Shown: positions 5,469-8,613 of the stretch, in pieces
How the letters are laid out: every line of letters begins with the position of its first letter
Position numbering within the stretch: the stretch's first letter is position 1
Source: a virus
Lineage: Duplodnaviria > Caudoviricetes
IMG/VR virus record: IMGVR_UViG_3300012952_000105
Coordinates: 1 to 27,029 of that record
DNA length: 27,029 nucleotides
Direction: 5' to 3' (one strand)
Notes under the pieces: generated by a model
Database searches by the model: none
The model's input: only the letters and a program-made list of their open reading frames with translations
What the model was told of the DNA's origin: nothing
Position numbers and translations under genes: made by a program

Positions 5469-5503
5469 AACAAGTTATTATTGAAATAGTTACGTTGAAA
5501 ATT

Positions 5504-5563: not shown

Positions 5564-5727
5564 TGTATGTATTTAAAAAAGAAGGAGAAGAGACAACTCC
5601 TGTAACAGATTTTTCTAAGATGTCTAAAGGTCAGCTAGAACAACATGGCAGAACTCTTGGCATTGAGCTTGATAAAAGGTTAAGCAAGTCAAAATTAATT
5701 GAACAATTAGAGGAAATTTCAAAATGA
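5563..5727 (+). CDS. 54-aa protein with Rho-N/HeH-like helical motif (not in ORF track)
   Basis: MYVFKKEGEETTPVTDFSKMSKGQLEQHGRTLGIELDKRLSKSKLIEQLEEISK; coupled at both ends (TAATG, ATGA). Confidence 0.7.
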   Translation: MYVFKKEGEETTPVTDFSKMSKGQLEQHGRTLGIELDKRLSKSKLIEQLEEISK

Positions 5728-5951
5728 AAAAAGGATCTAGAGTTAGCTGGATGTATGGCGGCAAAAGAACTTATGGCAAAGTTACAGGAAGTGGAGGAAC
5801 AAGGGCATCAATAAAAGGTCCATCAGGAGGTACTGTTACAAGAGTTGGAACTAAAGAAGACCCTGTAATAAAGATTGTATCTGAATCAACTGGTAATGCT
5901 GTGTTAAAAAAAAGATCAGAACTTAAGGCAGCACCTAAAAAGAAAAAGTAA
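5724..5951 (+). CDS. Small basic protein, DUF2945/Hva1-TUDOR-like
   Basis: KKGSRVSW...GKVT...GTKEDP..KIVS..TG...LKK.SEL pattern; coupled at both ends. Confidence 0.6.
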   Translation: MKKGSRVSWMYGGKRTYGKVTGSGGTRASIKGPSGGTVTRVGTKEDPVIKIVSESTGNAVLKKRSELKAAPKKKK

Positions 5952-6229
5952 TGGCTATTACTAGAGGAGGCCATACATTTGACGGTGTTGATAAACCCAT
6001 AAGAACCCCAGGCCATTCAAGTGGTAAATCTCATGCGGTTGTAATAAAACAAGGTGATGGTTATAGGATTATAAGATTTGGGATGCAAGGTGCAAGAACA
6101 AAACCACCAAGGAAAGGCGAATCGGATGCAGATAAAGCAAAACGCAAAAGTTTTAAGGCACGTCATGCAAAAAACATTGCAAAGGGAAAAACAAGTGCGG
6201 CATATTGGTCTAATAAAATTAAGTGGTAG
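5951..6229 (+). CDS. Small basic phage protein of unknown function
   Basis: KSHAVV...IRFG...RKSFKARH...SAAYWS pattern, which I recognise from phage hypothetical proteins; coupled to the upstream ORF. Confidence 0.7.
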   Translation: MAITRGGHTFDGVDKPIRTPGHSSGKSHAVVIKQGDGYRIIRFGMQGARTKPPRKGESDADKAKRKSFKARHAKNIAKGKTSAAYWSNKIKW

Positions 6230-6267
6230 GTTTGAGCAGATAGTGTAAAATGGTGATATAACTTAAT

Positions 6268-6321
6268 TAAGGCTACGCTTTATTTTTATGGCAGACGAAA
6301 AAGAAACAGTGGCTACGCCAC
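6268..6321 (+). promoter_or_regulatory. Pair of G-CTACG-C hairpins flanking the scaffold start codon
   Basis: TAAGG-CTACG-CTTTA (6268-6282, one G-U pair) and GTGG-CTACG-CCAC (6309-6321); the ATG is at 6288. Confidence 0.5.
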
Positions 6322-6980
6322 CAGTAAACAATGCAGAACTTGAAGCATTGAAAGAATCAGTAAAAAGGTTAGAGGCTAAAAATTACGAACTGATTGGTAA
6401 GTTAAAAAACCAAAAGGAAGAGAAGACAGTTCCTGATGATTATGATGCTCTTTTATCTTTTAAACAAAAGAAAGATCAAGAAGATTTAGAAAAAGAAGGT
6501 AAGTACACAGAAGCAACGCAAGCATTAGAACAGCAGTACAGAGATAAATCATCTGCTGACAAACAAAAGATAGAAGATTTAGAAAAACGTAATCGAGAAC
6601 TGGAATTAATTGCACCAGCTATACAAGCATTATCAGATGTGACGCATGATCCAGAACTTGTCTTAAATAATTTTGTACCAAAAGAACAAATCCAGATAAA
6701 GGAAGGCCGTCCAGTTGTGGTTGATGGTTATGAACAATTACCAGTAGCAGAATATGTGAAGGCAAAATTAGAAAAAGAAAAGCCATATTTATTAAAAAAA
6801 TCACCAGCGATTGGTGGTGGAGCACCCATTTCAAGACCATCTGGAGGTGGTGAAATGTCAGAAGAAATGATCAAGCCATTTTTAAAAAACTCAGAAAATC
6901 TTACAGAACAATCAAGAATCTTTAAGGTTTATGGTGTAGATACATGGAAAAAGTTGCGAGATATTGCAAAAACTCGCTAG
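6288..6980 (+). CDS. Capsid scaffolding protein
   Basis: Charged coiled-coil-like N-half, KPYL..GGGA linker, position immediately before the major capsid gene; no prohead protease in the window. Confidence 0.8.
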   Translation: MADEKETVATPPVNNAELEALKESVKRLEAKNYELIGKLKNQKEEKTVPDDYDALLSFKQKKDQEDLEKEGKYTEATQALEQQYRDKSSADKQKIEDLEKRNRELELIAPAIQALSDVTHDPELVLNNFVPKEQIQIKEGRPVVVDGYEQLPVAEYVKAKLEKEKPYLLKKSPAIGGGAPISRPSGGGEMSEEMIKPFLKNSENLTEQSRIFKVYGVDTWKKLRDIAKTR

Positions 6981-6992
6981 AATATAGATTAA

Positions 6993-7029
6993 ATTCTGTT
7001 ACGCAGAATAAATATTTAGGGTTACGCCC
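6993..7029 (+). promoter_or_regulatory. Pair of G-TTACG-C hairpins in the major capsid leader
   Basis: ATTCTG-TTACG-CAGAAT (6993-7009) and GGG-TTACG-CCC (7019-7029). Confidence 0.55.
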
Positions 7030-7057
7030 ACACCGTTTAAATTTATTTTAACAAAAC

Positions 7058-8089
7058 ATGGCTGTTTTAAGGAGTGACATCATCATTCCAGAAGTATTTA
7101 CGCCTTATGTTATAGAGCAAACAACCGCCAGAGATGCGTTTCTCGCAAGCGGTGTGGTAGCACCTATGGCAGAGCTAAATGCAACTGAGGGTGGAGATTT
7201 CGTTAATGTGCCTTTCTTTTCCGCAAACTTAAGTGGAGATTTTGAGGTACTTTCAGATTCAAGTTCATTAACACCAGGCAAGATCACCACTGATAAACAG
7301 GTGGGCGTTATTTTGCATAGAGGTCGTGCATTTGAATCAAGAGACTTAGCTGCATTAGCAGCAGGGTCAGACCCAATGGCGGCTATCGGTCAGAAGATCG
7401 GTGCTTACATTGCAAACCAAAGACAAAAAGATTTACTTTCTTGTCTTGATGGAGTATTTGGTTCTGTTAATACAACAGACTCTAACGCTGCATTTTTTGG
7501 ACTAACCATTGATGGTGGTTCTGGTGATACACCTACAGGTTTATCTCCTAGACACGTTGCAAAGGCAAAAGCATTATTGGGCGACCAAGGTGACAAGCTT
7601 GCAGCCGTTTGTATGCACAGTGCTATTTACTATGATCTCGTCGAGAGAAAAATGGTGGATTATGTATTAGCAACAGATGGTAATGGTGGATCTGCTACAG
7701 CATCTGGCGGTACTATTGCCCCTGCTTATGGCGGTGGAAACGATACAGTTCCTACATACTGTGGTCTAAGAGTTATCGTTTCAGATGACGTAACTACTAC
7801 AGGTTCTGGTGCTTCTAAAGAGTACAGTACATACTTCTTTACTCAAGGAGCAGTAGCAAGTGGAGAGCAAGCTGGGCTAACAACAGAAACAGACAGAGAT
7901 ATTCTGGCTAAATCTGATGCAATGTCTATTGACCTTCATTACTGCTATCATCCTGTGGGAGCAAAATGGGCTGTTACTACAACAAACCCAACACCTGCAC
8001 AACTACAAACCGTAAGCAACTGGTCGAAAGTTTACGAAACTAAGAACCTAGGAATCGTCAGGTCAACTAACGTTTCAACAATGGATTAA
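7058..8089 (+). CDS. Major capsid protein, SPP1 gp13-like (HK97 fold)
   Basis: SDIIIPEVFTPYV...AFLASG, RGRAFESRDLA...GSDPMAAIG..IGAY closely match the SPP1 gp13 N-terminal pattern as I recall it. Confidence 0.9.
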   Translation: MAVLRSDIIIPEVFTPYVIEQTTARDAFLASGVVAPMAELNATEGGDFVNVPFFSANLSGDFEVLSDSSSLTPGKITTDKQVGVILHRGRAFESRDLAALAAGSDPMAAIGQKIGAYIANQRQKDLLSCLDGVFGSVNTTDSNAAFFGLTIDGGSGDTPTGLSPRHVAKAKALLGDQGDKLAAVCMHSAIYYDLVERKMVDYVLATDGNGGSATASGGTIAPAYGGGNDTVPTYCGLRVIVSDDVTTTGSGASKEYSTYFFTQGAVASGEQAGLTTETDRDILAKSDAMSIDLHYCYHPVGAKWAVTTTNPTPAQLQTVSNWSKVYETKNLGIVRSTNVSTMD

Positions 8090-8470: not shown

Positions 8471-8613
8471 TGGGAATGTTTGCTTTTAAGCGAATGAGAG
8501 AACAAGAAGCTGCCAAAGCGGTGGCTTCTGTTCAACCCACTAAAAAACGTAAACGCAAGCCAAAAACTAATGGCAGTAACGATACACACAACAGTCGGGA
8601 GCAGCATAGCTAA
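8470..8613 (+). CDS. 47-aa basic protein (not in ORF track)
   Basis: MGMFAFKRMREQEAAKAVASVQPTKKRKRKPKTNGSNDTHNSREQHS; TAATG coupling to the decoration gene; fills the 8471-8569 gap and overlaps the next gene by 44 nt. Confidence 0.55.
   Translation: MGMFAFKRMREQEAAKAVASVQPTKKRKRKPKTNGSNDTHNSREQHS

Follow-up and report, generated by a model that had tools for sequence, protein, structure and literature searches.

The starts of the head scaffolding and capsid genes of a siphovirus, kin of the cyanophages KBS-S-2A and MED4-184, carry four small hairpins that comparison with relatives marks as a real, uncatalogued RNA element, and the same comparison makes a strong case for the scaffold as its reader, with a residue-to-base code that can be tested. 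In about 240 scaffolds a change of loop letters goes together with a change at two scaffold residues, which suggests that the scaffold likely binds the hairpins as RNA, so as to balance how much is made of the two main head proteins. The reading we prefer, and which we consider probable from the comparative data, is that a conserved and covarying Y-NNN-G element is bound as RNA by the N-terminal helix of the scaffold, with scaffold synthesis repressed and capsid output likely coupled.

The window and its relatives

The window is the whole stretch of DNA analysed, a 27-kb virus record (27,029 nucleotides) that is 69% complete and contains terminase, portal, head morphogenesis, scaffold, capsid and lambda-like tail genes. 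The features used below are the following.

6268..6282, + strand: hairpin S1, in the ribosome-binding region, its CUACG loop spanning -15 to -11 relative to the scaffold AUG
6288..6980, + strand: head scaffolding protein of 230 aa, the candidate RNA reader (phrog_206, E 2.2e-19)
6309..6321, + strand: hairpin S2, within codons 8-12 of the scaffold coding sequence, loop at +25
6348..6410, + strand: scaffold codons 21-41, leucine-zipper-like helix (heptad pattern, alignment, AlphaFold2), with the proposed specificity residues E29 and K38
6954..6983, + strand: promoter-like TTGCGA-N18-TAGAAT, a consensus match only, its -10 box starting at the scaffold stop codon
6993..7009, + strand: hairpin C1, loop UUACG at -59 relative to the capsid AUG
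7019..7029, + strand: hairpin C2 (GGG-UUACG-CCC), its loop at -36 relative to the capsid AUG
7034..7041, + strand: window variant of a YGUWAA-like element, reading CGTTTAAA
7058..8089, + strand: major capsid protein, SPP1 gp13-like (PF20036 (Gp13-like), phrog_247)

The capsid protein is 79% identical to that of KBS-S-2A, 73% to that of S-H1, 65% to that of MED4-184 and 35% to SPP1 gp13, and from these relatives we infer a marine cyanobacterial host. Among GTDB genomes no more than 4 loci turned up, all in MAGs spread over mixed taxa, and these were left out of the host assignment. The sole family match of the window scaffold is phrog_206. Two small basic ORFs precede its gene, an Hva1 Tudor ORF (PF11160) at 5724-5951 and a phrog_7595 ORF at 5951-6229; both are patchy among the relatives and vary independently of the adjoining genes.

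For the comparison 345 loci were fetched, and 322 loci, counting the window, had a complete scaffold ORF. Nine of these ended too early on the downstream side. The strict form of C2 is present in 309 of the 313 loci with enough sequence and missing from 4; the 309 that were kept hold 192 distinct scaffolds.

Placement, loop types and covariation of the hairpins

A sequence-only reading of the window had proposed the four hairpins, and all of them are found where it placed them. It had seen GYTACGC nowhere else by eye, and the exact count over both strands of the window is indeed 4 (6272, 6312, 6998 and 7021, all on the + strand). We do not use this count by itself as evidence, because it lies within chance: shuffled sequences hold 1.96 on average and 12 of 100 shuffles reach 4. 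The clustering of the hairpins is unusual, as four YTACG hairpins with a stem of at least 3 fell within 800 nt in none of 300 first-order Markov simulations. Weaker YTACG hairpins, which lack the G-C closing pair, occur at 5490 and 25522 on the + strand and once on the - strand. In all four hairpins ViennaRNA predicts that the loop Y pairs with the loop G to leave a UAC triloop, with the pentaloop as the alternative.

Relatives retain both pairs, S1/S2 around the scaffold AUG and C1/C2 in the capsid leader, where the second pair had been located from the window. Across them the S1 loop falls between -15 and -8, and S2 between +22 and +37, a conserved position at the initiation region. The distance of 40 nt between the S1 and S2 loops, to which the earlier reading drew attention, is exact in the window and relaxes to 33-44 nt in all but one locus among the relatives. 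C1 and C2 are spaced by 14-27 nt, and for 68 of 70 representatives the capsid AUG follows C2 at a distance of 33-44 nt. C1/C2 is the better-kept pair: S1/S2 are retained in about 93% of loci and both are absent from 10 of the 192 scaffolds, including those of the cultured KBS-S-2A and MED4-184, which carry C1/C2 only, while the cultured S-H1 carries all four sites. Three loci without S1/S2 (L029, L033 and L373) have three hairpins rather than two in the capsid leader.

Among the 192 distinct scaffolds the triloop is UGC in 93, UAC in 66, UGU in 18, CGU in 10 and UAU in 5, and the sites of one genome switch loop type in concert. The C1 loop equals the C2 loop in 190 of 192 (the remaining two also have a matching C1), the S1 loop equals it in 178 (3 differ, 11 are absent) and the S2 loop in 179 (1 differs, 12 are absent). 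S1 differs in L115 and L139. In L132 and L409 the helix and the S sites belong to one type and the C loops to another; these loci are either recent recombinants or assembly chimeras. L396 and L399 show a sixth loop, AAC, at S1, S2 and C2, with UAC still at C1 and L at residue 37, which looks like a switch caught midway. The constancy of the loop, which was claimed from the window, holds inside a genome and gives way across the family to a Y-NNN-G form with several triloops. The claimed G-C closing pair stands at C1 and C2, where it was also the search anchor, and falls at S1 and S2: among 42 S1 closing pairs 26 are CG, 8 GC, 6 UA and 2 other, and that of S2 is also variable. Since loops and closing pairs vary, a constant pentaloop with an invariant G-C closing pair was rejected at the family level.

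S1 sites for the covariation analysis were picked on loop letters alone, which gave 38 distinct sequences with five pairs each. In these stems 98.4% of cells are paired and 47 cells are altered on both sides; the covariation score is 0.776 against 0.253 when shuffled, none of 500 shuffles (which ignore kinship) reaching 0.776, and slid controls pair in at most 58.9%. For S2, taken blind to its stem, the first three pairs form in 61/61, 61/61 and 50/61 sites, well above shuffles, though the hairpin lies in coding sequence. Loops of a genome's own type that occur elsewhere have a stem of at least 3 in only 38 of 803 cases. On the + strand G-U outnumbers A-C in the stems by 114 to 9, an excess that arises partly through the selection of sites and that fits + strand RNA. 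The C2 stem is GGG/CCC in 70 of 72 distinct sites and, being nearly invariant, gives no covariation. The argument that differing stems which still pair are a mark of selection is thus borne out at S1 and S2, which covary, and does not carry over to C2. Taken together, stem covariation, fixed placement and concerted loop switching agree on a selected RNA structure.

Several further elements accompany the hairpins. In many relatives (L002, L010, L064, L068 and others) the C1 stem holds a purine-rich 3x3 internal loop beside the closing G-C pair, which is compatible with tandem sheared G-A/A-A pairs. In 58 of 71 representatives the C2 loop is followed, after 5-10 nt, by a conserved YGUWAA-like element that is the same whatever the loop type, so that pairing of the loop with this downstream element was rejected. 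Loop-loop kissing between the sites was likewise rejected on inspection, as the loops are identical, not complementary, and UACG is not self-complementary. In the GC-richer relatives L074, L101 and L123 a predicted hairpin recurs right behind the capsid AUG, within codons 1-7, and may reflect a conserved peptide only.

Loop letters and residues of the scaffold helix

AlphaFold2 models residues 15-45 of the scaffold as a helix (mean pLDDT 76.8, pTM 0.36); a fold search with this model found no similar structure at an E value of 0.001 or below. The heptad d/a positions are L21, V25, L28, N32, L35 and L39, all hydrophobic except for N32, which is invariant, while residues 24, 31 and 38 fall at heptad g and residue 29 at e. 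Asn at a heptad a position favours parallel dimers, and residues at e and g flank the groove. From this heptad pattern we infer that the helix forms a parallel dimer.

Loop letter 3 tracks residue 29, where D/E goes with C and R/K/Q with U, and the adjoining residue 24. Letter 2 tracks residue 38, where K goes with A and D/E with G. Letter 1 tracks residue 37 less cleanly, the window having G37. We condensed this into a two-residue rule, in which letter 3 is C where residue 29 is acidic and otherwise U, and letter 2 is G where residue 38 is acidic and otherwise A. The rule is correct in 191 of the 192 scaffolds that form its training set. All four combinations of residues 29 and 38 exist, every one with the predicted loop, and the rule also fits the C loops of the 10 scaffolds that lack S1 as well as S2, and near-identical pairs such as L334/L336. 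A held-out set was built from 80 metagenome loci fetched later, 26 of which were dropped (15 already known, 5 without a stop, 3 short and 3 without the helix). The rule was right in 50 of the 54 that remained, wrong in 1, and 3 had no strict C2, which makes 50 of 51 scorable loci; among held-out loci less than 90% identical to the training set it was right in 23 of 24, and in two loci the pattern took C1 instead of C2. Carboxylates serve as hydrogen-bond acceptors towards C and G, and Lys, Arg and Gln can act as donors towards U and A. We find it quite likely that the helix reads the loops as a parallel dimer, acidic side chains reading C/G and basic or amide side chains reading U/A.

Independent loop changes were counted on a tree of the scaffold core from 71 representatives. 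Letter 3 changed 15 times and 7 independent pairs agree with residue 29 (median p 0.016); letter 2 changed 4 times and 3 of 3 independent pairs agree with residue 38 (p 0.25). Crossed residue-letter controls on the same tree gave no such agreement. The contrast between L068 and L070 is instructive: their scaffold cores are 93% identical, the C-termini 100%, the loop-masked leaders 95% and the capsids 98%, the helices only 38%, and all four loops differ. This suggests that the C loops follow the helix, some 600 nt away, and not their own flanks.

Translation starts and transcripts

A Shine-Dalgarno-like word is absent 5' of the scaffold AUG in 70 of 71 representatives. At the other end of the gene, 60 of 71 representatives have a TAnnnT whose first base is that of the scaffold stop codon; matches to the promoter consensus number 3 in the window against 8.2 expected. 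The capsid transcript is predicted to begin near 6990. The RNA runs are present as contigs only, which carry no strand, start or level. Contigs of three RNA runs from one study end at about 6988-6992, a run of unrecorded type continues through, and the RNA contig X2 from another study spans 6992; as one RNA contig crosses this point, the contig ends are only a weak hint of a transcript start. Contigs in X4 and X5 extend upstream of 6269, and no start at S1 is seen in them.

A model for scaffold and capsid synthesis

Because S1 and S2 bracket an AUG that has no Shine-Dalgarno-like word, a bound scaffold would likely block initiation. Provided that binding holds, we think it likely that scaffold at S1/S2 blocks initiation as unassembled scaffold accumulates. 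A free scaffold dimer would bind S1/S2 and repress its own translation, and would bind C1/C2 and couple capsid output to the amount of free scaffold. C1/C2 lie farther from the capsid AUG, directly 3' of the -10-like hexamer and where the capsid transcript is predicted to have its 5' end, which favours a positive role there: binding would leave the capsid start free, and the message would be stabilised or activated. This sign of the effect at C1/C2 is the least certain part of the model. Free scaffold would in this way be a signal of capsid shortage that turns its own synthesis off and favours capsid synthesis. Autorepression through S1/S2 would not be universal, given the 10 of 192 scaffolds without both sites.

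The main rival is tethering for co-translational assembly, in which the scaffold binds chiefly for assembly, C1/C2 holding it on the capsid mRNA to catch nascent capsid and S1/S2 serving as optional feedback. The persistence of C1/C2 where S1/S2 are lost, the third C hairpin of the three loci noted above and the position of the C sites outside the capsid start region all speak for it, as does the case of SPP1, where gp11 chaperones polymerisation of the gp13 capsid protein (PMC6316719). Tethering as the chief function nevertheless seems unlikely to us: S1/S2 occur in most loci at a position suited to repression, and the distant loci L433-L435 have Y-nGA-G hairpins 5' of the scaffold gene only.

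Beyond the model of scaffold repression and capsid coupling, we would tentatively entertain a bolder one, of which we are doubtful as a whole. The short coiled coil of phrog_206 scaffolds would be a modular RNA code, residues 37, 38 and 29 setting the three loop bases, with at least six natural, mutually orthogonal protein-hairpin pairs; through these the scaffold would both shut down translation of its own gene and attach to the capsid mRNA, and the capsid protein would then be produced and chaperoned at the places where free scaffold is present.

Other candidate readers of the loops

The sequence-only reading had named free scaffold, capsid or a neighbouring basic protein as possible readers. 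Comparative data favour the scaffold, by its N-terminal helix, and the capsid and the basic neighbours track the loop less well. When loop type is predicted from the nearest neighbour, the helix is right in 68 of 71 cases, the scaffold core in 51, the C-terminus in 48 and the leader flanks in 60, and among the other proteins the capsid is right in 49 of 63, the phrog_7595 protein in 42 of 54 and the Tudor protein in 12 of 22. Prediction of shared loops over all pairs gives an AUC of 0.833 for the helix and 0.836 for the core, so that here the helix is no better, and in the training set a column of the scaffold core (0.995) and a Tudor column (1.0, 71 sequences) do about as well for letter 2. 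The codons of the helix, at 30-100 nt from S2, travel together in haplotype blocks, which keeps the effects of residues 24/29 and of 37/38 from being told apart completely.

The same adjacency is what could be said for another protein as the reader, of the host or encoded by the phage beyond the flanks that were fetched, with the scaffold helix merely linked to S2: helix and S2 adjoin and recombine as one block, and the gene comparison covered flanks of 1.5-4 kb only. We hold this to be improbable, as the rule holds at the C sites in the 10 scaffolds without S sites and in near-identical pairs, the new AAC loop comes with L37, and a host factor changing its specificity 15 or more times appears unlikely.

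It is very improbable that the elements work through antitermination of transcription or as DNA, be it as hairpins of a promoter or as palindromic operators. C1 does come directly after a -10-like box, which would suit such a role. Against it, the arms are free to vary while the loop is constrained, G-U is favoured on one strand, and neither in the window nor in L074 does a terminator-like + strand site overlap a hairpin. Least probable of all is a reading by the capsid protein or by the Tudor or phrog_7595 neighbour, for although the two neighbours are small basic proteins, one of them with a Tudor fold, Tudor was found in 70 and phrog_7595 in 143 of 177 loci with at least 900 nt upstream, all 34 loci without phrog_7595 retain S1 and S2, all three proteins follow loop type less well than the helix, and capsids 98% identical go with different loops.

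Distant scaffolds and significance

A profile search gave 349 scaffold relatives at E up to 0.001. The K-N-x-x-L helix is kept in 45 of the 67 listed matches of 200 aa or more, and 10 of 10 distant relatives tested were assigned to phrog_206. The retention of the helix motif in distant scaffolds suggests that the principle may be wide. L433-L435, distant members of phrog_206 with a K-N-x-L-L-G-E helix, place their two Y-nGA-G hairpins at about -37 and -15 from the scaffold AUG, and no such hairpins were found in their short capsid leader. The cultured YuA-like phages YuA, Epa19, Xoo-sp2, RcRudolph, Mallos and Bosa (L427-L432), whose scaffolds are without the K-N-x-E-L helix, have repeated G-NGA-N-loop hairpins 5' of the scaffold gene; the loops are mostly GUGAU, and the capsid leaders of L427, L428 and L430 carry them too. 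We regard these as an analogous element in tractable phages.

The ratio of scaffold to capsid decides proper head assembly, and this locus offers both a candidate RNA target and candidate contact residues, with predictions for swaps of a single residue and a single base. Cultured relatives exist, such as S-H1 with all four sites. If our reading is true, a leucine-zipper-like helix that carries a code for reading bases would bind RNA in an unusual mode and be a source of small orthogonal translational switches.

Relation to known systems

The hairpins had not been recognised from the window as a described motif, and the searches agree with this. Rfam 15 at the gathering threshold returns 0 families in the window and likewise 0 in 7 related loci; with E up to 10, the region 5900-7200 gives 3 chance matches, none on the + strand hairpins. 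GP20-a (RF02991) and GP20-b (RF03003) are uncharacterised RNA motifs that take their name from a phage GP20 gene and occur 5' of genes of the scaffold type. The GP20-a model has no match in the window, and that of GP20-b has one chance match at 8477-8551, of 11 bits against a cut-off of 36.2, and none at the hairpins. A literature search found neither a description of the motif, which the supplements of PMC5737381 and PMC10690425 may hold, nor an RNA target or contact residues named for any phage scaffold. The main texts contain no passage on GP20, capsid or scaffold (PMC5737381) and name no scaffold (Fremin and Kyrpides 2023, PMC10690425; 10,006 candidates), and four spellings of the motif are absent from the 6 files of PMC10690425 that were searched.

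ANTAR proteins offer a likeness in paired small hairpins, together with our proposed reading by a coiled-coil dimer: in PMC8934654 a coiled-coil-containing dimer such as EutV reads such hairpins through their loop bases. The loops described there have six bases, with positions 1 and 4 conserved, and overlap a terminator, whereas those of the Y-NNN-G element have 5 nt or 3 nt. EutV, according to that source, cannot hold both loops of a single RNA simultaneously, which advises caution towards a picture of one dimer per hairpin pair. No match to the ANTAR domain was found in the 29 window ORFs, from a record 69% complete, or in 68 scaffolds.

In phage P22, unassembled scaffold limits its own synthesis post-transcriptionally. 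The P22 scaffolding protein gene was reportedly found to be autoregulated by Wyckoff and Casjens in 1985. The likeness lies in the proposed logic, in which free scaffold would curb its own synthesis. The proteins differ, the scaffold here being phrog_206 and the capsid SPP1 gp13-like, with no homology to P22 scaffold or coat found, and the repeated hairpins, the second pair in the capsid leader and the candidate specificity residues belong to the family of the window. The link to P22 is one of analogy only and not of homology.

Phage proteins that read a small hairpin in their own message are familiar from the MS2 coat hairpin and from T4 gp32, gp43 and RegA, and lambda N uses an alpha-helix on the pentaloop of boxB. 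The present case resembles these in pairing a phage protein with a small hairpin, and resembles N in the alpha-helix as reader, though other proteins and other loops are involved. We know of no autogenous operator or N-boxB case in which four sites switch with two residues of a leucine-zipper-like helix. As in an autogenous operator, a conserved and covarying structure lies over the initiation region of the candidate regulator's own gene, and it is the residue-to-base covariation that makes the scaffold a candidate for direct binding.
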